From Octopus sinensis (taxonomy: Eukaryota), in assembly GCF_006345805.1 (NCBI RefSeq), contig NC_043006.1, positions 62,124,001 to 62,188,000 on the forward strand: a stretch of 64,000 nucleotides of DNA, read 5' to 3'. Both the position numbers and the translations under genes were made by a program. Shown here piece after piece: positions 59 through 62,961 of this stretch; position 1 is the stretch's first letter; every line of letters starts with the position of its first letter. The notes below the pieces were generated by a model that saw only the letters and a program-made list of their open reading frames with translations, was not told the DNA's origin and did not search any database.

Positions 59-159
59 GAGAAAGGCAGAATGCTACTTATATCTGAACACTACAATAGA
101 AATATTCTTTTAAAAAAACTTTTCTTCTAATTTTTCTAAATTTAATTATTTAATCGTTA

Positions 160-197
160 CAGTTGAAAAGGTCTCAAAATGACCGAAACCGGTACTG
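160..197 (+). ncRNA. Minimal type I hammerhead ribozyme, U3-A8 core variant
   Basis: cag-TTGAAAA-ggtc(tcaaaat)gacc-GAAA-ccgg-TA-ctg: stem I cag/ctg, stem II ggtc/gacc, palindromic ACCGGT stem III. Confidence 0.75.
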
Positions 198-282
198 AAA
201 GATTCACTATAAAATTATCTTAGCATTTTCTATTTTTGACTTGTTTTTACGTATATATCAACTCGTGTGTTCCTTTCCACCC

Positions 283-436: not shown

Positions 437-654
437 ATTATGTGAAATAGAAAGATGAATAATCTTGTAGTAGATTAATCAAAAGTTTAACCGATACCTT
501 AGTAGCAAAAATCACAGCAGTAAACAGCACGGTTGGAGGTACAACCATCTGGCGTTGCAACCGTGCGTTGGTGCGGATAATTGAAATTAAAACATTATTG
601 GTGAATTGAAGAAATGGAGCTGAACGCAGATTGAACAGAAATCGTTTTATTTCA

Positions 655-734
655 TTCTACACGTGTTTCGAAAGGCACAAATTACCAAAATCCGATTGAA
701 TAATGGGACCATATTGTGTCTTTCTCTTCAGGAA
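655..734 (-). ncRNA. Type I hammerhead ribozyme with intact core, in pLTR
   Basis: ttc-CTGAAGA-gaaagacacaa...ttgtgcctttc-GAAA-cacgtg-TA-gaa. Long stem II, palindromic ACACGTGT stem III, predicted cleavage after GUA (658/657). Confidence 0.85.
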
Positions 735-1409
735 GAAAAAAGGAAATCCGTTGGAAAAACAAACAGAACAGAGGGCGAGCAAAAACAAATCGAACTATGC
801 TCCTAAGAGCCCATGGCGAAACTGATTATCAGTGTATGTTGAGAACCGGTGGCTGAAGAATTCAACGGTCAGGCATCGGTCAATCATGTGGGTGAGGGTG
901 TATAGATGTTCTTTGTGACCGAGATAAAGTTCTGACTATTTAAGGAATATTGGATGTTTTATAAGGGGCGAGAAAAAATCTACTTAGAGACGTGTGTGTG
1001 TGTATACTGTTCTATATATGTGTGTGTTGGCGTAGGGGTAGAAAACATTTTTTGTGTACGTGTGTGCGTTTGATCGTTCGGCTGTCAGTGGCTACTGCCG
1101 TGATAACCGTTGGGTGGCAGAAAAAAAATATATATATATTATGTTTTATGTGTGTGTGTGTTCATCTAAGCCTGCCTTGTCAAGGAAACCCCCCGCTGTG
1201 AAAAAACCAAGCCCCGTTTGTCTTACAGGAGTAATTCCCCTTGCAGTGGTTAATCGTAGATATCTTAAAGGCTATTTCAGAATTTGTTACCAAGGGCTAT
1301 GGGTGCCGGTATTATTTATAAACGCTATTTAAAAGCCAGATAAGTGTAACGCCGCCAATGGGGGCATCGAAAAGCCGACTGTAAGAGCCCGTTTACCATC
1401 CGGCCTCTG

Positions 1410-1700
1410 GCAAACAAAATATGGAAGAGTTCGGAGACACAAAGGTTGCACTGTCTTCTGCCCCTATCAAATGGGAGGGCCACCGACAAAATTGACCATT
1501 CAGCCTATAGCTTAAGTTCGTATCCTTCAGTCGCCATATAGCTTACTGAGTCCCGTGGTCTGGCGCTTGTTCACGTCCCGAAAAGTTGCGTAATGGTTGG
1601 AGACACGCAAAGACAATCTTGAGGATGAGGCCCCTACATAAGTGAAGACATCTGAGTCCGTGTAAACCTTGCATTGGTAGACGGCGTTTTTGATCTTGGA
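1410..1700 (-). pseudogene. PLE GIY-YIG endonuclease remnant (frameshifted)
   Basis: KNAVYQCKV..TYVGASS..RVSNHYATF..LSK..W.LK..WSIL..A.PF..CNLC pattern. Confidence 0.85.
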
Positions 1701-2119
1701 GTTCGCCGACGTGAATCTTAATCTGCTAGGATTAGTTTCTGAAATTAGAACTGCGTTCCTGTCACTATATTCGTTCCGAGACTGCAGCCGCTTACTACTC
1801 TATTTTCCACTACGTCACTATTAACTATAGGAATAACCCCTGATTCTCCACTATCTATCAGAGTGCTGTCATTGCTACTGCCCGTGGTGCTGCTATTGCG
1901 GGAAATGATGCTGGGGATGCTATTGGGGCTCTCTACCCTACTCCCATTGTTACCGTCAACCACAACACCCCTATTTATAACTATACCCCTAGTGGGTACT
2001 CCCTGGCTGGAGCTGAGATTATGTGTCACTGTACTGGCTCTCATATCATTATTACTACTATAATTATTCCTACTGAGCATTAGACCGGGAGCGGAAGAGG
2101 CTGTGCCTCCGGAAAAAGG

Positions 2120-3101
2120 TGATAGGGTCTTAGTAAGTAGCCTATTATTATGGGAGGCGATTATCTGGGCGAGGTTTTAGTGTTGGAGAAAGCTATCCTA
2201 ACTTATGTGAGTTAACCGTGGAGTAATATTTGGAATTTCTGGGGAAGTTATTGGCGATGGCTTGTCTAAACATGAGGGGGAGGTTAGTTCTAATCTGCTT
2301 ACCAAAGGGGATTACAAACCATATATGCTTATTCCTATCAGTGTGATGGGTCGGGACGCCAGCTCTCGCATTCGGGTGGGTGATTCTCGGATGAATAACG
2401 GGTCTTGGGTTAGTGTAAGACCTCCCGGACCGATAATTATCCTTGTTCGCTAATTAAATGCGGGAGCGACTACCACGCATCCGCCGCGCTCCCGTCCTTA
2501 CTTAAAATGTTAATGTTATTATATACGGCCCTATCCTGATGACCGAATGATGGCATCGGAAGGCCGGATCAATTTAAATTGCCTTCTGCCTATAACCGGC
2601 CTTGGATAGTGCGGCGTTATAAAATTCCGCTTTCTGCATAAAAATATCGGCACTGGCGGACAAGCCAGACAATCTTAGAGAGATGTTTTAACCAAATTGT
2701 CTGTTACGGTTTTGGCATGATTTGAGAAGACACTGACATACTTCAAATTAGTGGAAGGCTTATGGTAAGGGCAGTATGAGTCGCTATTAAGGTAGTGTAA
2801 CGTCTAGGAAATTAGCCTTGGTGAGTTCATTATCAAAAACTATACTCATGCCCATTCTATTAAAAAACTAGCTAACCTGCTCTTAGTTTTCTGCACTATT
2901 CTGTTCGTGGTGTTTTGCAGGTAAAACAGACAATCGTCACGATACAGGCCGCCCGCGATCTCCGGGAATTGGTCGGACAATTCGTAGAGAATATATATTC
3001 CGACCAAATCGGCTATCTGCGCACTATCCGAACTACCCATAGGCACATCAAATTCATTGGGAGTATCTTTACGGATCCACAACTTATTATCAAACTTAAT
3101 A
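2120..3101 (-). pseudogene. PLE reverse transcriptase (motifs B', C) and thumb, disrupted
   Basis: FDVPMGSSDSAQIADLVG and GGLYRDDCL in ORF 2846..3169. Downstream FYNAALSKAGY and FPRNSKYY..IIASHN are frameshifted. Confidence 0.9.
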
Positions 3102-3159
3102 AACGCAGTTCTAATTTCAGAAACTAATCCTAGCAGATTAAGATTCACGTCGGCGAACT

Positions 3160-3450
3160 CCAAGATCAAAAACGCCGTCTACCAATGCAAGGTTTACACG
3201 GACTCAGATGTCTTCACTTATGTAGGGGCATCATCCTCAAGATTGTCTTTGCGTGTCTCCAACCATTACGCAACTTTTCGGGACGTGAACAAGCGCCAGA
3301 CCACCACGGACTCAGTAAGCTAATATGGCGACTGAAGGATACGAACTTAAGCTATAGGCTGGAATGGTCAATTTTGTCGGTGGCCCTCCCATTTGATAGG
3401 GGCAGAAGACAGTGCAACCTTGTGCATCCGAACTCTTCCATATTTTGTTT
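3160..3450 (+). pseudogene. Inverted duplicate of the GIY-YIG endonuclease region
   Basis: ORFs 3057..3323 and 3185..3469 together give the EN motifs; reverse complement of 1410..1700. Confidence 0.85.
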
Positions 3451-4136
3451 GCCAGAGGCCGGATGGTAAACGGGTTCTTACAGTCGGCTTTTCGATGCCC
3501 CCATTGGCGGCGTTGCACTTATCTGGCTTTTAAATAGCGTTTATAAATAATACCGGCACCCATAGCCCTCGGTAACAAATTCTGAAATAGCCTTTAAGAT
3601 ATCTACGATTAACCACTGCAAGGGGAATTACTCCTGTAAGACAAACGGGGCTTGGTTTTTTCACAGCGGGGGGTTTCCTTGACAAGGCAGGCTTAGATGA
3701 ACACACACACACATAAAACATAATATATATATATTTTGTTTCTTTCTGCCACCCAACGGTTATCACGGCAGTAGCCACTGACAGCCGAACGATCAAACGC
3801 ACACACGTACACAAAAAATGTTTTCTACCCCTACGCCAACACACACATATATAGAACAGTATACACACACACACGTCTCTAAGTAGATTTTTTCTCGCCC
3901 CTTATAAAACATCCAATATTCCTTAAATAGTCAGAACTTTATTCTCGGTCACAAAGAACATCTATACACCCTCACCCACATGATTGACCGATGCCTGACC
4001 CGTTGAATTCTTCAGCCACCGGTTCTCAACATACACTGATAATCAGTTTCGCCATGGGCTCTTAGGAGCATAGTTCGATTTGTTTTTTGCTCCGCCTCTG
4101 TTCTGTTTTTGTTTTTCCAACGGATTTCCTTTTTTC

Positions 4137-4216
4137 TTCCTAAAGAGAAAGACACAATATGGTCCCATTATTCAATCGGATTTTGGTAATTTGTGCCTTT
4201 CGAAACACGTGTAGAA
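4137..4216 (+). ncRNA. Hammerhead ribozyme copy with G5A core mutation (probably inactive)
   Basis: Same as 655..734 except CTAAAGA replaces CTGAAGA (position 4142). Confidence 0.75.
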
Positions 4217-4283
4217 TGAAATAAAACGATTTCTGTTCAATCTGCGTTCAGCTCATTTCTTCAATTCACCAATAAGTTTTATA

Positions 4284-12690: not shown

Positions 12691-12734
12691 TGTGTGCGTA
12701 TGCATATATGTTTATATATACATAAAAAAATATA

Positions 12735-13360
12735 TATAACACCCAACCTCAAAATACTTCCATACATTTCCACCCAAAACCCCAAACACATCGAAGCATA
12801 CACCACAATCATACAAAACCTCCCCTTACTCTCCACATACCCCAAAAGAATGATATTATCAATACAACTAAAATTCCTAAATGCAAAAGGCAACATAAAT
12901 CATTGAAAAAAACTCCTAACAAATACCAAACTTCACACACCACATCCACCCCATCAGTTAGAAAATGTGCACGTCCTAACTGTGATACCTGTCGCTTTCT
13001 AACTGAAGGCTCTGAATATACTTTCAAACAAGGAACAAAGTTTAAAATCAAGACCAACTTCTCTTGCTACTCAGAGAACTTCATTTATGTTCTTACATGC
13101 GCCGGTTGCCAACACAATTATATCGGACAAACGAGCCTTCCTTTACGTAGAAGAGTAACAGTCCATAAAGAACAGATAAATCTCCCACAATACCGCCAAA
13201 TTCTACTCAGTAGCCACATAAACCCTTGCGCTAGAAATAAAAATCCCAAATTGCATATATTCCCTTTCTATGAATGTAAAGACAGAATCTATACACAAAA
13301 AGAATCAGCAAGGAGAATCTTTTTATTGAAAAATTCCAAACGCTTCTTAATATGACCGTA
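12735..13360 (+). pseudogene. Neptune-like PLE C-terminus: Cys-rich linker and GIY-YIG endonuclease
   Basis: KCARPNCDTC..FSCYSENFIYVLTCAGCQHNYIGQT..LRRRVTVH..SSHI..PFY in ORF 12903..13355. Confidence 0.9.
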
Positions 13361-21360: not shown

Positions 21361-22539
21361 GGATCTTTTCAAATTTGTGGCCAGGACCCCAGATCTTTCT
21401 AGTTAACTAAATAATTTGAAACTTTGTGTACTCATAGAGTGGAACTAGTTTATTCGCCAGTAGGAACTAGTTTATTTGAGAAAAATCTATTTTATGACTT
21501 TAATCGTAGATTAAAACTGCGAATTTTAACCAATGAGATTGCTTGTTTTCATATCTAAAACGTTACTGCGATCTGTTAGTGTGACGTTGAAAGCAGTTTT
21601 GTGACGTCTGCTATTTCTAAAAAGCTTTGTGTGTGGTAAAGTAATTTTTTTACTTTACCATATTTTTATAAATTATATCGGAGAGTCCATATTTTTATAA
21701 CATATATCGGAGAATCCATGTGATTTTTCGTTGTTTTTTCTCTTATACGTATGTGAATTATTTCTGAGTATGCATTGTCTGGGAGACTTTTTCTTGCAGT
21801 TGAGAAATTTTTGGCTGCTATTTCTAAAAAGCTCGGTGTGTGGTTAAGTAATTTTTTTACTTTACCATATTTTTATAAATTAATATATATATATATTATA
21901 TATATATATATATATATAATTTTTTACTCGGTGTATGTGTATATGTATGTCTGCATGTGTGTGTGTATGTATGTGTGTGTGTGTGTAAGTATGTGTAAAA
22001 AATTACATTGAATCGGCCATACATACATACATACACATACACAGATACATACACACATACATTCAGGCATATACACATACACCGAGTAAAAAATTTCAGT
22101 TATCTCTCTCTTTCACACATTACTCTCTCTGTCTCTTCACACACACTAACAGAAGCACTTCACTTACACAACATACTGTCTCCCACACCCCATCAAACAC
22201 ACACACACACACATGTACATCAATGCTTCCCCTAGACGGTAACTTCAAAGACAAACTTTTGTTATTAGAAGGTGGCTGACTATAGCTTGTTTACATTGTT
22301 TAATACGTCACGAAATTGGTGGTCGAGACGGAGTAAATAAAATAAAGCCGAATGACGGAATATCATTGGTTAAAATTCTAATTATTAAACAACGTTAAAC
22401 TTAGAAGTTACAATTCCGTTTTCATTCTGGTTGACAATTAAGTTTACTTTTGACACATTCTACCAGTATACGAAGTTTCAAATTGTTTGGTTCAGTAGGA
22501 AAAATTTGAAAAAACTGGCTTCAGAATAGAAAAGATCCC
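21361..22539. mobile_element. Old non-autonomous DNA transposon with long diverged TIRs (Harbinger-like ends)
   Basis: ggatctttt / aaaagatccc termini. Internal inverted blocks: aatttgaaactt..tact and aattttaaccaatga.att. Confidence 0.6.
21608..21882 (+). mobile_element. Tandem direct-repeat copy of the fold-back family 3' end
   Basis: 21608..21678 is repeated at 21815..21882. 21720..21845 aligns with 62773..62905. Ends at (TA)n. Confidence 0.7.
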
Positions 22540-38656: not shown

Positions 38657-41600
38657 ACAAGCTGACGTACCCGGTAAATCCCGAAATAGCATGGTTAATC
38701 CCTTAGTTCTGCTCTCATAAATGTTTCACTAATCTAATAACAACAATACAATGTATATAGCCCTTAAAACGGTTTTTGTGCATTTATAGAGAATACAGAA
38801 CTGTCTTACATAGGACCTTGTTTTTAGGAAATCCCAATAAATTATTAATTAGCCAAATTCTGAAGTCAGTTACGTAATAACATGAAATTACTTACCCGAT
38901 AGTAAGAATTCAAATAAAGTAGCCCCGAAAAGGGCTTTAATGAGTGACATAGGAGGAAATATTAATGAGGTATGTACACCACAATCGTGAAGCATGTTTC
39001 GTAATAACAGGCTAGTCAGATATGAGATAATAATGATTCAAATTAAATCACTTTGAAAAGTGCTATTGTGCGTCCCCAAAGAATATTACCCTCAGAGGCA
39101 CTAGTGTTGAAATAGATTCACAATCAATGTAGAAAAGACTAACATTTAGTTTTACAGTAGACATACAAATGAATCTGCATATAGATTTAAGAATATAATA
39201 ACATGTAGATTATCAATACATTTACAACACTTACTAATATTACAGTAAAATAATAAATATCTGATTTGGTGAATCGTATTGTTTGCAGGGCTTGATAAAC
39301 AACAGCTTTGTCCTTTCCTTGTGGAGCATGAATAAACAAATCATTACGAATTCCTCCTCTTGAGCATACCACATAATGTTGGCCATAGTAGAAAACCGGT
39401 TCCCCAAAGTTCAGAGCTACCGCATCCAAGGACCGCTCCTGAACATTGTTAATACTCATTTCAAAGCTCGCTTGCAACCGGAATTCCAGGCGCTTGTACT
39501 GGAAAGGCATATACGAGGGAATAAGCGGGATTCTAGGAATGAATACAGGTTCACCGCTTGTTTTACCAGTGAAATTGTTTGTCTCCAAGACTCTTGGCAT
39601 CATCTTCTTTATGATAATTCGTGTGCCATTGCAAAGCTTTGGTGGATCGAAACGTAGTAGAACAGGTGTCCCAATCTTGAGGTGTAGGTTGTGAGGTGGG
39701 AGACCAGGTGGTGTTATACGATTCAAGAAATCAACTGGATAATTCACAGCTTCAACGATGTTGAGTACAGCGTCAATAGAACTGTAGAATTTAAAGTTCA
39801 AATCTCAACTGCCACCTTCTTTGGAGCGAAACTGGCAAGGGTTCCAGCCAGGTGTGGTCTGTAAACTGATTCATTGGGTTAGAAATCACCTTATCCATTA
39901 GTTCTTTTAAATCAGATATCGTATGTCCAAAAGGCTAGCTTGCCTGGCCATCCTTCTGGGCAACCGACGTACGATTAACAACATCCAACAATTGCTTTGA
40001 AAAGGTTCCGACTGCATCATTATCACTGAGCTGCACTGTCATGTTGGTTGTGAGTCTTAGCTTTCGCACACAGCTCCATAGGTAGGACGACTTTATGCTG
40101 GCATTTATTTCACTAGCTCTTGTCTCCTTTGGAACCACAGAAGTAGTTTGTCTAAAGTCTTGTGCAAGCAAGATTGTGGCACTTCCCATGAGCAACATCT
40201 ATCAATACAAATTAAGGTGTTCCTACATGTAAATATGGTATGACATCTGTGATAACAGTGCATTTGTTTAAAAGCAGTTATTCATGCAACGGCTGTCAGT
40301 TGGCTGATGTGACATGATAGATTATCGTCATTCATGATATATTCGTGAATAGGTCACTAACCGAAATAGGTGAATCTATTATTGATTTTTTTTAAAGAAA
40401 GTGACCTTTATGACAGTGCAAATGACCGGTTGGTGGAAAAGAAAAATAAGGGATTTTACATGGGTTATTTCCCCTTGGCCGTTAAAAATAAGTAAAGTGT
40501 ATATCGTAAAGAAAATATCACAGCTATCAATATGAATTACGAAAATGTTCCTAAATGTAAACAGCGTGTGAACTATATAAGAACAGTGTAGATTGCAATA
40601 TTATTGATAGACAAATGGCGATTTCTGTCTGTTTGTGTGGTTGGTTGTTAAAAACATTAGCACCTCTATCAATATAAATTAAGGTGTTCCTATATGTAAA
40701 TAGGGTGTGACCTTTGTGCTGACTGCATTTGTCGAAAAACGGAACAGTTCTTCACGCAGCGCTTGTCAGTTGGCTGAAGTGACAAGAAAAGCATTGCCAT
40801 TCATGGTATATTCATGAATAAGTCACTAACCGAAATAAATAGATGTATTGTTAAGGAAAATACTATTTACTTGTTTAAGGGTTGTACTGGGTAAATTGCG
40901 AAAATAATCTAACATTTCAAATACTAAGAAATAAACATACTCAACTTGATCACTGAGCATGTTTGACAATTTTTTGTAAGAAAGTCCATGTGATGTACAT
41001 GTACACGTATTTATACAAGGTAACCACTTGCAGCTTGTCACTCTGACAATTTCTCGTAAGAACGTGCAGGCAATGTAGAATGTACACGCATTTATACAAC
41101 GTAACCACTTGCAACCTGTCAGTGTAACATTGCTTGCTTTGGAAATAGCTTGACTATATATAGGAAATTTCGCAGATATACAAATAGCTATATTTTGCTG
41201 TTTATGAGAAAGAAATGTCAGGATGAGTCAAGCTTGTTTTACAGGTGAATTCTGCTTAAGTGAGGTTAAATGTCAAGTGGCGATACAATACATCACTAAG
41301 GACAGTAATTGTTCTGGCTGTCAACTTGCGAGTTCTTAACTGTTTTTGAATAAGAACCATCTTATTTGCAAGCTAATAGGAAAATTAAAGATTTAATTTC
41401 GATTCTAGTACTAGCTAGTTTCCAAACGAAAATGTCTTCCTATATATAGGAAAATGAATGTTATTTCCCTTGCCTGTTGAAGGAAAATGTATTGATTATA
41501 TATGTGGATCCCTTCTAGGGACCCTAGTCATCCAATTATAGCTTTTTATTAAATTTCAATGGGCGTAGTTACAAACGTGATGTTACTTTAGCATGTTTGC

Positions 41601-46499: not shown

Positions 46500-48010
46500 A
46501 TGTACCTAGTGCTTCATTATATTTATTTAGCTGTGTCGAGGAGTTTTGTTTTAATATGTGAAATGCCTCTTCTAAGCATAACTTGGTACGGTAGCCCTGA
46601 ATCTACTATGGGCTATGCGAAAATATAGGGAATATTTCTAATTTTGTGATGATGTATATGGCTGGCAAGTGTTGTGGATTTACCGTGTTTCTCGTATCTA
46701 AAAGAACTGAGATGAGCGGCCTATCGTTGTTTAAAATCTATGGTTGAATCTATGTATATAGCTGTAGAATAGTGTAATGTGTTGAGGACGGTGCATTTAT
46801 AAATTACATTAGATCTTCTACAATGGGTTGGCAGAGGTTAGATGGACACAGGACGGCAGTTACAAGTGAGTGTATTTTGGGGGTTATTTTCAGGAATGGA
46901 AGAGGTAATACTGCCCAACGGGAGGTTGGGGATGGGGATAGAAAGATCCAAGTTATTATTATTATAATTATTATTATTATCATTATTAATTTTTATTATT
47001 GTTATTATTATTATTATTATTATAATTATTATTATTATTACTATAATGATAATTATTGCTATCGTTGTTGTTAATTATTCTATCTCTAACGGTAGTAGAA
47101 GTTGTGGTAGTATTTTGGATAGTGTTCAATCTTGGAGCTGTGTACATGTTGGGCGCTCGTGTATTCAGCGTTGTTATAATGTGAGTTTTGATAGTAGAGA
47201 GAAAGCATTTGTTTATTAGAGGCTGTTATGATAGACTCGAAGTTAGGTGGGGTGGAATAGGGTAGTATCAGGGTAGATCTATTAAAAACTAGAGTAATAT
47301 TTATATTGGCGAGGGAAGTTGGAATAGCCTATTAAAGAAGGATTTAGCTTAGCTCTTAATGTTTAGCGAGAAGCGTGTTGTATACCATAGAATAGAGCTT
47401 ATACCACTTTTGGGGGTGCTTAGGGGTAGTACTATCAATATATTTGGAAAATGGAGAGGGTAGCATGGCTCATTGTTGTCAGGAGTTTTAGGTGTTTTAG
47501 CTTTTGACTTAGTTTTATATGTGTGCTTGGGGGGTCTGGGTTGTCTTAATAGGGTTCTTCCGGCGTTCTAGCATAGTGTATGCGTGGTGTGTTATGATTC
47601 TGATATTCGGTGTGTCGTTGCGATGTGAGTTGAAATATATGTTGCTTGAGCCTAGTATTAGGGATGTATATAATTTGTTGGGAGAAGCCACTGGCAGCGA
47701 GCGCTTGGTTGTAATATGGTGCGTGTTTATTAAATACTTCCTCAGTAGAAGATATGTCAGATACACGGATCGAGATACCCTTGACTATGTTATCAAAGGT
47801 GGATTTGTGGTGATTGGAAAGGATGTTTAAATATTTAAGGTATTGGTTAGGTTTGTGATAAGGAGAGCATGGGGAGGTTTCTAAATTTAAAGTTACGTCT
47901 AAAAAGTAGTAGATTTGTGGCAATTTTAGAAGGTAAAATACAGGTTAATGCTAGAGAAAAGCTCGTGTAGATCTTTGTGTAGACTGATGACATCTTGTCT
48001 TCTCTTACAC
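46500..48010 (-). pseudogene. Second, older Hydra-like PLE: thumb, CxC linker and GIY-YIG
   Basis: FLDVTLNL..PYHKPN..SNH..IS.R.S..SS.EE.F....YN.AL..SG; CNCR..PL..C..NVIYKCTV. Confidence 0.85.
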
Positions 48011-54564: not shown

Positions 54565-54620
<56 letters not shown>

Positions 54621-54622
<2 letters not shown>

Positions 54623-55146
54623 AATATTTTATGATTATAAACATATAAACAAAAGTATAATTAGGTTTCAGCTAATTAATTCACCACATACCGAATTTAG
54701 AAATAGGACTTAAAAATTTATTTTCTACTACTGTAAGAATCTCATGACAGTAACATATTTTTTTTACGTAGGCAAAGAGAAAAACAGTGGATCAACACGA
54801 CCAAGATTAACTACATACGCGTTTCGAGATTAAAGGGTTTGAAAATTTACTTACTTCTCTCTTCAGTGTAGTATTTTCAATTATAAAGTTTGGAAGTGCT
54901 AGGGTTAAATATGCACACGATCGAACGACATCATGTAAAATATATCCAACCCACACTTCCAAAATTGAAGAGCCGAATGTGAATACACTATCCATCTCCT
55001 ATACACACGTATATGCTACCAGCAGTACCGCAGAAAACTGCAGTATTCTATCATGGAATTTTTAACTTTTATTTCTAAATTCGGTATGTGGTGAAGCAAT
55101 TAGCTGAACCCTAATTATAATTATCTTTGAAATTATAAAATATTTG
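54621..55146 (-). mobile_element. HHR-bearing fold-back element (arms 54621..54705 and 55070..55146)
   Basis: Inverted arms share ttcaccacataccgaatttagaaata; homologous to 62373..62961; abuts (TA)n. Confidence 0.85.
54810..54872 (-). ncRNA. Type I hammerhead ribozyme, canonical core
   Basis: actaca-CTGAAGA-gaga...tctc-GAAA-cgcg-TA-tgtagt. Confidence 0.9.
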
Positions 55147-55393
55147 TATAATTTTACCTATGAATGTTATTTTAACGTAACGATCTACTTGGTAAAATTA
55201 TTAATTAATTGATTGATTAATTAATTTAATTGATAAATGTTACCCTTTTATTATTAATTTAAAGTTATATATATATATATGTACATACATACATATATAC
55301 ATATACACATACATATATATATATGAGAGAGATACATACATATATATGCAGCCACTACATACATATTTTTCTCTCCTTGTTTTTTCTGGGTAC

Positions 55394-61800: not shown

Positions 61801-62372
61801 ATTGTTTCCAGGTAAAACCAACCGAAATTATTTAGATCAAATAAAACAGCATGTAGTGTTACTGGAAGGAAATTATATTTTATCGGTGAATGCATTTGCA
61901 ATGTAACTTTTCGAGGTAAAACGAAACGGGCAAATATTTATGTGTTGGAAAAAAATCATGAAGCGTATTTGGCAGAGAATGCATGGAGATATTTAAAATG
62001 TGGGATACCCACATAAGTGTTCACTGTGGACATGGACTTGGGGAGGGGCAAAGGCTCGACTGAAGACCTCGGGGCATCATGCGTACATAGTGTAACCTGT
62101 ACTTTTAAATATTTTCGAAAGTAGGACTTCATAGGTCTTGTGCTTGAACTGATTTTGATGGAAACTTAATTTCAATATTTTTAGTTTGGAAATTAATGTA
62201 CATTACATATATTACAATATAATAAAAGCTATATAGTATAGTTAGTTAGCGTGCTAAACAAAGTATATTTTCCATATGAATTTTTCTGCCTAGTTAATCA
62301 GATTTCATGATGGTTTTAGTAATTATTTTATTTATCCCTTTCTTAAAAGGACCATTTTTTGGTAAACTTAAA

Positions 62373-62961
62373 CAATATTTTATAATTACGAGAACAATTA
62401 TAATTAGAGTTCAGCAAGGGTTTGCTTTACCACATACCGAAGTTTAGAAATAGCAGCCAAAGAACCTTACATATTTCTTCTACTATAAAAAGAGACTACC
62501 GGACAAAACAAAATATTCAAAATAACCCATGCAGACAGAGAGGAAAAATAACGAAATTCACTCCGTATTTGATTACCTGTGGACGCGTTTCGGAATTAGA
62601 TCGGTATGAAGAATGTAAAAATCATACTTCACCCAAACATTTTCCTCTTCAGCACAGGATTCCACAATATTAAATTTCAGAGCGCCGGAAAAATTGAACA
62701 TACCTATCCAATTCAAAACAGTATCGGACAGATCATATTCAACGAAATGCGTCTACAGTTAATCAAATACCAAGTGAATTTCGTTATTTTTCCTCTCTGT
62801 CTGCGTGGGTTATTTCGAGTAATTTGTTTGTCCGGGAGTCTCTTCTTATAGTAGAAGAACTAGCTAAGGTTGTTTGGCTGCTATTTCTATACTTCGGTAT
62901 GTGGTAAAACAAATCTTTGCTGAACCCTAATTATAATTATACGCGTAATTATAAAATATTG
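62373..62961 (-). mobile_element. HHR-bearing fold-back element (arms 62373..62592 and 62743..62961)
   Basis: About 220-bp colinear inverted arms, non-coding spacer, abuts (TA)n. Confidence 0.92.
62576..62658 (-). ncRNA. Type I hammerhead ribozyme, canonical core, GUC cleavage site
   Basis: cctgtg-CTGAAGA-ggaa..gtatga..tcatac..ttcc-GAAA-cgcg-TC-cacagg. Confidence 0.92.

Follow-up and report, generated by a model that had tools for sequence, protein, structure and literature searches.

A decayed two-arm insertion with a covarying type I hammerhead in Octopus sinensis, and its probable origin as a Penelope-mobilised retrozyme

The window considered here, 64,000 nucleotides of Octopus sinensis contig NC_043006.1 (positions 62,124,001 to 62,188,000 of the forward strand), belongs to a 2.7-Gb genome that is rich in AT and microsatellites. 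A scan of both strands for canonical hammerhead cores, with a stem I of at least 4 bp and a stem II of at least 3 bp, finds two such motifs in the window, both on the minus strand, at 54810-54872 and 62576-62658. The first is the motif that a sequence-only reading of this DNA had reported, as part of a fold-back copy ending at 55146. The locus is not symmetric, however; it consists of two arms of a tandem-forming unit with unequal 3' ends, and the right arm continues to about 55268. The fold-back frame overlooked both the tandem unit and the Penelope-type marks of insertion.

The insertions and their hammerhead

The features of the locus and of its sister copy are as follows, with the basis of each in brackets.

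54568..54620, unstranded: (TA)n target run adjoining the left 3' end (sequence)
54621..55057, RNA sense minus: left arm, 437 nt, a 5'-truncated copy of a ~562-nt unit (sequence comparison)
54664..54760, minus: most conserved 3' region, with the TTCGGTATGTGGT motif and predicted hairpins on either side (alignment, folding)
54802..54880, minus: extended type I hammerhead (core scan, covariation, folding)
within 54802..54880, minus: outer stem Ia and then a 3x3 loop, outward of stem I (folding, covariation)
54867-54872/54810-54815, minus: stem I (scan, covariation)
54860-54866, minus: CUGAAGA core (scan)
54856-54859/54826-54829, minus: stem II (scan, covariation)
inside 54830-54855, minus: 3x3 loop and stem IIb (folding, covariation)
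54822-54825, minus: GAAA core (scan)
54817-54822, minus: palindrome ACGCGU (scan)
54815..54816, minus: predicted cleavage site, after GUA (general hammerhead consensus applied to the sequence)
55055..55057, unstranded: arm junction, a 3-nt overlap GGA (left arm to 55057, right arm from 55055)
55055..55268, plus: right arm, ~213 nt, a 5'-truncated inverted copy that ends at the long 3' site (sequence comparison)
55266..55279, unstranded: (TA)n run adjoining the right 3' end (sequence)
62345..62961, unstranded: second insertion, of a sister subfamily (scan, sequence comparison)
~62345-62744, minus: left arm of the second insertion, including part of the long tail
62576-62658 (extended 62568-62666), minus: hammerhead of the second insertion
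~62743-62961, plus: right arm of the second insertion, with the short end and then (TA)n

The left arm is 86-87% identical to two other genomic copies, L004 and L006, and ends at a short 3' site, 43 nt past a GCTGAA(A/C)CC anchor. The right arm is 89-91% identical to the same copies and carries a tail some 110-120 nt longer than the left end (+154 against +43 past the anchor). The longest stop-free stretch in the insertion is 84 codons, and with its one ribozyme the window copy is a solo derivative of a tandem family. The conserved 3' region at 54664..54760 is likely to act as the recognition signal for a reverse transcriptase.

The relationship with the second insertion is clearest at the ends and at the ribozyme. 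The terminal 95 nt of the two copies align with a score of 77, against 23 +/- 4 for shuffled sequences (0/1000 as good), and the ribozyme segments with a score of 37 against 15.5 (0/1000); the middle segments align weakly (31/1000 and 69/1000 shuffles as good). The cleavage site lies 195 nt from the left end here and 209 nt from it in the other copy (62373 in the earlier reading). In the second copy the right arm starts, at 62743-62765 (plus), about 11 nt upstream of the predicted cleavage site, and UACAGU takes the place of the CACAGG stem I strand of the left arm, a difference that reflects either two mutations or a second template. A short, degenerate third fragment of the family, the end motif only and then (TA)n, is found at ~21800-21880 (plus).

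The CUGANGA/GAAA/UH core and three helices, with helix I open, make this a type I hammerhead motif. Its 6-bp helix I, 4-bp helix II and short helix III with a palindromic loop are those of the canonical metazoan type I form, for which the sections consulted of Cervera & de la Pena (2014, PMC4209133) give the same helix lengths, a helix III of 1-2 bp with a palindromic loop, and the same core elements. Departing from that form, helix II here continues past a 3x3 internal loop, with an insert of 20-66 nt. Unconstrained folds of most representatives show stem Ia, a 3x3 loop (AAU/UAA-like), stem I, the core and stem II, beyond which come another 3x3 loop and a hairpin whose length varies. The extra stems covary in their turn (7/7 pairs with two-sided changes, 82.5% paired, 0/500 shuffles), with the outermost pair weak and paired in 27 of 61 rows. 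Both internal loops are conserved at the canonical spacing, with covarying stems outside them. Canonical metazoan type I hammerheads, in which loops 1 and 2 touch, have the same spacing of 6 bp and 4 bp (PMC4209133, sections consulted), so the two internal loops may contact each other here as well.

Helix III is built from an insert of CGCG, CGUACG or CGCGCG, and the two common forms make perfect palindromes with the closing A-U. Stem III has a predicted pair probability of 0.0 in the monomer, and the computed self-duplex energies are -7.5 kcal/mol for ACGCGU and -9.8 kcal/mol for ACGUACGU. An unformed stem III together with self-duplexing palindromes would fit cleavage as dimers, as reported for axolotl retrozymes in the parts of PMC7229834 consulted, where the axolotl ribozyme HHR_Amex1 likewise has a stem III of one pair and a palindromic tetraloop. 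The window copy retains only 3 pairs of stem IIb, and its stem II forms with a predicted probability of 0.33, so this particular ribozyme may cleave poorly. The segment 54810..54872, earlier suggested for a cleavage assay, could by itself give a false negative, since stem III is predicted to be unformed in the monomer and the segment excludes the outer stem. No Rfam hammerhead model matches either window copy (E <=1 in the window and E <=10 at four loci), and the microRNA matches that Rfam returns in the window are microsatellite noise. The long-loop form suggests that such elements are undercounted.

Covariation and conservation of the ribozyme

Between the two window copies, four of the six stem I pairs have changed on both sides (ACUACA/UGUAGU against CCUGUG/CACAGG), as have two of the four stem II pairs (GAGA/UCUC against GGAA/UUCC), and none is broken, just as the sequence-only reading described. 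It had also called CUGAAGA, GAAA and CGCG invariant, which is true of these two copies; across the family, N7 and the stem III insert vary.

Copies for a larger alignment were gathered by DNA search, by ribozyme pattern and by an end motif that is independent of the ribozyme. Among 133 distinct candidate ribozyme rows, 122 passed and 11 failed a check of the flanks; the removal of 5 mis-parsed rows, 9 collapsed array units and 2 truncated copies left 106, of which 74 had not been picked by the core pattern. The row parser tolerated two mismatches per core half, a setting that fully degenerate lineages would escape. In an alignment of 61 hand-chosen rows (A1), two-sided changes occur in all 6 stem I pairs and in 3 of the 4 stem II pairs (9/10), and in none of helix III. 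Among the gathered candidates, all ten stem I haplotypes seen at least three times are fully paired, and broken stems are mostly single copies. In the 61 rows, cells of the three stems are paired in 95.1% of cases, against 80.2% in shuffled alignments (0/500) and 17-46% in slid controls. The number of two-sided cells is 154 against 52 (0/500), a count in which relatives figure many times; the number of pairs with a two-sided change (138/500) and that of further pair types (184/500) do not exceed the shuffles in the same rows.

Because relatives inflate such cell counts, a tree was built from the flanks only. On this tree of the 74 rows, partner columns change together on 9 internal branches, against 2.4 when permuted (2/20,000), and with all 106 rows the figures are 13 and 2.8. 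Of the stem changes on internal branches 29 of 30 keep the pairing, and of those on tips 28 of 61 do so (Fisher p 6e-7; 74 rows). The earlier proposal of covariation between subfamilies therefore survives both the larger alignment and a tree-aware test. The 11 catalytic positions show no internal change and 18 changes on tips in the 74 rows; in the flanks the mean is 1.0 internal change per column, with 46% of columns unchanged internally. N7 and H17, the tolerant positions, change internally 6 and 4 times among the 106 rows: N7 is found as A, U, G or C, and H17 varies and is never G. The core is fully canonical in 61 of the 74 rows not picked by the core pattern.

We hold with considerable confidence that the covariation of the stems is due to catalysis. 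Covariation by itself is expected for a mobile ribozyme. A core that is fixed in inherited lineages, while the tolerant N7 and H17 are free, argues for selection on catalysis in the source elements, and the alignment as a whole points to sources that are kept under selection for a working ribozyme and inserted copies that decay neutrally. Of the selection for self-cleavage proposed earlier, the part concerning catalysis is supported, and the step at which cleavage matters is not shown by covariation. There is also a subfamily (L160, L171, L178, L181, L186 and L216) in which the basal pair of stem II is mismatched (C-A or A-A) and the core beside it is intact.

The repeat unit, its arrays and its insertions

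First-look DNA searches, with 40 candidates scored in each, returned 1,435 and 2,164 family candidates. The end motif has 2,174 exact matches in the genome and the ribozyme of a young subfamily has 1,220, against 0 for the control of each (the reversed motif in the first case), counts in which arrays and two-arm insertions figure more than once; in viral contigs the end motif has no match. Self-comparison of 60 loci reveals direct repeats of about 545-600 nt in which the 5' end of the unit is joined to its own 3' end with no ORF between (L002, L004, L005, L006, L029, L040, L050, L056, L058 and L060). At L159, 14.6 units of about 599 nt, about 99% alike, lie between (TA)n runs, and 13 of 15 units contain an exact, intact ribozyme, so that the tandem hammerheads of a retrozyme are present at the level of the family. 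Over their 3' ~90 nt these units match the window copies at about 80% identity; the ribozyme is arranged in the same way, with different compensated stems (UCCACG/CGUGGA) and a palindrome that is longer. Arrays in the young subfamily reach about 15 units. The longest stop-free stretch in an array dimer is 80 aa, and coding capacity is absent, as in retrozymes. Folded as circles, natural monomers reach z -7.2 and -6.4 (30 shuffles for each), and the lowest-energy fold of an A-family circle (L006) is without an active ribozyme. Contigs from four sequencing runs, three of them presumed to be RNA, contain pieces of the family with joints that go back 555-565, which tandem DNA explains equally well.

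By sequence definition the family qualifies as a non-LTR retrozyme, known here from DNA alone. It resembles the metazoan non-LTR retrozymes, as the consulted parts of Cervera & de la Pena (2020, PMC7229834) and of 10.64898/2026.07.22.740005 present them, in its non-coding tandem units with one type I hammerhead each, a GC content below 50% (here 34.6%), its dispersed monomers and arrays, and co-existing Penelope-like elements. It differs in the size of the unit, 560-600 nt against 170-400 nt in invertebrate retrozymes (the preprint gives 51-972 bp over all families), and in a loop 2 that is here an internal loop with a long covarying hairpin. Nor do the sections consulted of these papers describe inverted two-arm insertions, two start sites or a haplotype for each insertion.

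The structure of the insertions was surveyed at 60 loci picked by the end motif only. Inverted pairs with 3' ends outward make up 27 of the 60, 20 loci reach at least 200 nt 5' of the end motif, and a microsatellite lies within 190 nt of 57. The 3' ends, which were assigned by a motif classifier, BLAST-based calling being confounded by AT-rich flanks, cluster at +10, at about +35 or at +105 to +140 past the GCTGAACCC anchor. The classifier left one of the 27 pairs unparsed and mis-called the window's left arm as tailed through a chance flank match. Of the 26 parsed pairs, 24 carry the long tail on exactly one arm and none carries it on both (p 5e-6 against 0.5); among single arms it is present in 10 of 33. 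There are thus two 3' start sites about 100 nt apart, one per arm, and the window copy obeys this rule. The inverted 5'-truncated copy, the one-sided tail and the microsatellite target of Penelope-type insertion are all found; target-site duplications are unreadable because of the (TA)n flanks.

The same inverted ends beside (TA)n, present in both window copies, might suggest a DNA transposon of the MITE or fold-back kind, with inverted repeats at its termini and TA as its target, in which the ribozyme-like sequence would be a passenger. The reading is hardly credible. Fixed, equivalent terminal inverted repeats are not what is found: an inverted arm is absent from 33 of the 60 motif-picked loci, the arms measure from tens to thousands of bases, head-to-tail arrays occur, and the two ends differ systematically (24/26). 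It is accordingly largely refuted.

Younger insertions repeat the pattern. We chose 20 among the first 100 matches listed, favouring arrays and inverted pairs, and 12 of this chosen set are inverted; all 11 inverted insertions in which both ends are visible pair a short end (+11 to +26) with a longer one (+63 to +126). In two of the young insertions each arm is an array (4+5 and ~11+~12 units). Over 27 informative columns, units differ by 0.51 within an arm, by 0.82 between arms and by 4.1-10.8 between insertions, and each young insertion has its own haplotype. The 5' ends are spread over the unit with no pile-up at the cleavage site (the two 5' values nearest to that site, both at L239, are alignment stops, and the sequence there continues across the site), and all ribozyme-containing insertions have been copied across an intact scissile bond. 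Copying of the uncut site and the missing pile-up suggest that cleavage most likely serves the excision of monomers for circles and not insertion.

Probable mobilisation by a Penelope-like enzyme

The marks of insertion closely recall the endonuclease-bearing (EN+) Penelope-like elements. According to the parts consulted of Craig et al. (2021, PMC8557442), these insert at microsatellites, leave inverted copies truncated at the 5' end and have a tail of 30-40 bp on one side only; according to those of Frangieh et al. (2024, PMC11167929), a purified Penelope-like protein, for which a dimer is predicted, makes nicks in both strands and extends them, two internal start sites define the tail, and ribozyme mutants still insert in vitro, cleavage being dispensable for insertion. 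The octopus family shares with the elements of both papers, as far as consulted, the partial tandems, the inverted 5'-truncated copy, the tail at one end, (TA)n or AT-rich targets, two internal start sites and extension from both target strands. It differs from them in having no ORF, in a tail of ~100 nt against 30-40 bp, in arrays that can reach ~15 units on either arm, and in that no homologous autonomous partner was found. In the retrozyme papers, as far as consulted, Penelope-type mobilisation rests on co-occurrence and pLTR homology (PMC7229834; 10.64898/2026.07.22.740005), and Li, Clavereau & Pollet (2026, 10.64898/2026.07.22.740005) regard animal retrozymes as non-autonomous Penelope derivatives, with cleavage observed in only 1 of 9 retrozyme dimers. 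That the octopus retrozyme is mobilised by Penelope-type machinery we consider very probable.

Candidate enzymes exist in the genome. One intact Penelope-like ORF of 782 aa has Pfam matches to both RT and GIY-YIG, and a second intact family of ~900 aa, found by its RT motif, has hammerheads flanking the ORF on both sides. An autonomous element with a homologous 3' end was not found among 60 Penelope-like loci (28 + 32, three queries). L065, L257 and L261 were considered as autonomous partners and rejected, the unit being present there only as separate-looking insertions.

The copies could instead be the 5'-truncated ends, or pseudo-LTRs, of an autonomous Penelope-like element whose ORF-bearing copies went unsampled; the insertion marks match those of autonomous elements (PMC8557442, sections consulted), and a hammerhead is likewise present in the intact ~900-aa family, where it has a long insert in stem II and a palindrome of 8 nt. 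This is improbable, as the 5' end of the unit joins its own 3' end with no ORF between and the window copy has nothing longer than its 84 stop-free codons. Moreover, the RT and GIY-YIG ORF of an autonomous EN+ element is not found in the family. Penelope-like protein matches occur at only 4 of 130 hammerhead loci (2 of them belonging to another family) and 1 of 60 motif loci, and the three near copies of this family start at residue 325-371, beyond a 3' end, and look like truncated neighbours.

We therefore regard the locus, on balance quite probably, as a decayed two-arm insertion of a non-coding retrozyme of ~560-600 nt that would pass through a circular RNA and be copied by a Penelope-like enzyme into (TA)n sites. 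The circular template and the steps of cleavage, ligation and transcription are proposed from DNA, and would run as follows. Arrays would be transcribed, and the hammerheads, aided by contact of one 3x3 internal loop with the other, would excise monomers; in the older ACGCGU subfamilies they would probably cleave as dimers by way of the palindrome. A host ligase would circularise the monomer. A Penelope-like protein could then bind the conserved 3' structure and nick both strands of a (TA)n run, priming two cDNAs, one per start site, each of which would circle the template for 0.2 to ~15 turns; joining of the two 5' ends at a few shared bases would give the inverted arrangement. The arrays and the two-arm structure fit such rolling-circle reverse transcription. 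More tentatively, and with slightly less than even confidence, the family may be read as a record of bidirectional rolling-circle reverse transcription by a dimeric Penelope-like enzyme, from the two strands of one (TA)n cut and two fixed sites ~100 nt apart, with up to ~15 turns per cDNA, with a hammerhead subtype whose tertiary contact would lie between two internal loops and which escapes the present Rfam models, and with the family probably still spreading.

That the template is a circle rather than an uncleaved multimer we think somewhat probable. The same family and the same type of enzyme could also have used a long, uncleaved linear array transcript, or the arrays could have grown by unequal crossing-over; a circle would then be unnecessary, and the ribozyme would serve another step, such as freeing the RNA from read-through transcripts. 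Such a template accounts for variants common to non-adjacent units of L159, where one substitution is common to units 1, 2 and 11 and another region to units 4, 6 and 8. These shared variants speak against a single circle read with independent errors, and the shared substitution points to a multimeric template, to template switching, to conversion at a later stage or to an error of assembly. That every ribozyme-containing copy crosses an uncut site is equally in keeping with a linear template, and unprocessed RNA is the main in vitro substrate of the anole Penelope-like protein (PMC11167929, parts consulted). One haplotype per insertion would also be expected from the transcript of a homogeneous source array, and DNA alone cannot separate a circle from such a transcript. 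We nevertheless consider a linear template or crossing-over unlikely. Both arms can be multi-unit and share the same private haplotype with exact standard 3' ends; growth after insertion predicts the opposite of what is seen, namely long arrays in the youngest subfamily and a second same-strand end motif within ~900 nt at only 3 of the 60 motif-picked loci; and retrozyme circles are on record from coral, mussel and axolotl (PMC7229834, as far as consulted).

How ribozyme circles of animals enter genomes is the subject of a proposed model, in which the circle borrows a Penelope-like enzyme. The octopus genome brings together the marks of the enzyme at base resolution, young near-identical arrays and intact candidate enzymes, and their presence in one genome makes that model of spread directly testable. 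The rule of one tail per insertion also bears on the origin of the inverted structures of Penelope-like elements. Set against the consulted parts of the papers cited, what appears to be new is a large-unit retrozyme, an internal-loop hammerhead and a two-site, two-arm signature of insertion. The literature searched holds no description that we found of the family or of a two-arm signature for retrozymes (Repbase, Dfam and the supplement of PMC7229834, which lay outside the search, may list the family), and the main text of the octopus repeat annotation (PMC13282606), as far as consulted, has no occurrence of 'ribozyme' or 'retrozyme'.

Several other elements lie in the window or share its motifs. 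An inverted two-arm Penelope-like insertion with RT remnants occupies ~590-4273, and both of its arms bear a hammerhead (at 731 on the minus and at 4140 on the plus strand) that has a long insert in stem II and the palindrome ACACGUGU; its intact ~900-aa relatives are at L269 and L278, where its hammerhead flanks the ORF on both sides. A hammerhead at 149-213 (plus) has a U3-A8 core variant, the palindrome ACCGGU and a weak Rfam match to HH9, and by visual inspection the 3' UTR of the young 782-aa family (L081-L085 and L088) contains a similar motif. The latter family has two 3' ends ~45 nt apart before (TA)n; by eye, its ends lie ~6-14 nt past an ACCC/CCC tract, as do both start sites of the retrozyme. 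At 12729-13352 (plus) is the GIY-YIG endonuclease end of a Penelope-like element, with a C-x4-C-x2-C linker, followed by microsatellites, and at 47546-47941 (minus) a fragment of a further, probably Penelope-like family with no Pfam match and 150 scored relatives. The fragment of a Pif1 helicase 2B domain at 39187-39801 (minus; Pfam E 1e-10) may come from a Helitron. Finally, another hammerhead family with long stem II inserts and the palindrome ACAUAUGU is found at L034, L036, L051 and L139-L158, and its pattern has 93 exact matches with inserts of <=50 nt, against 0 for the control.
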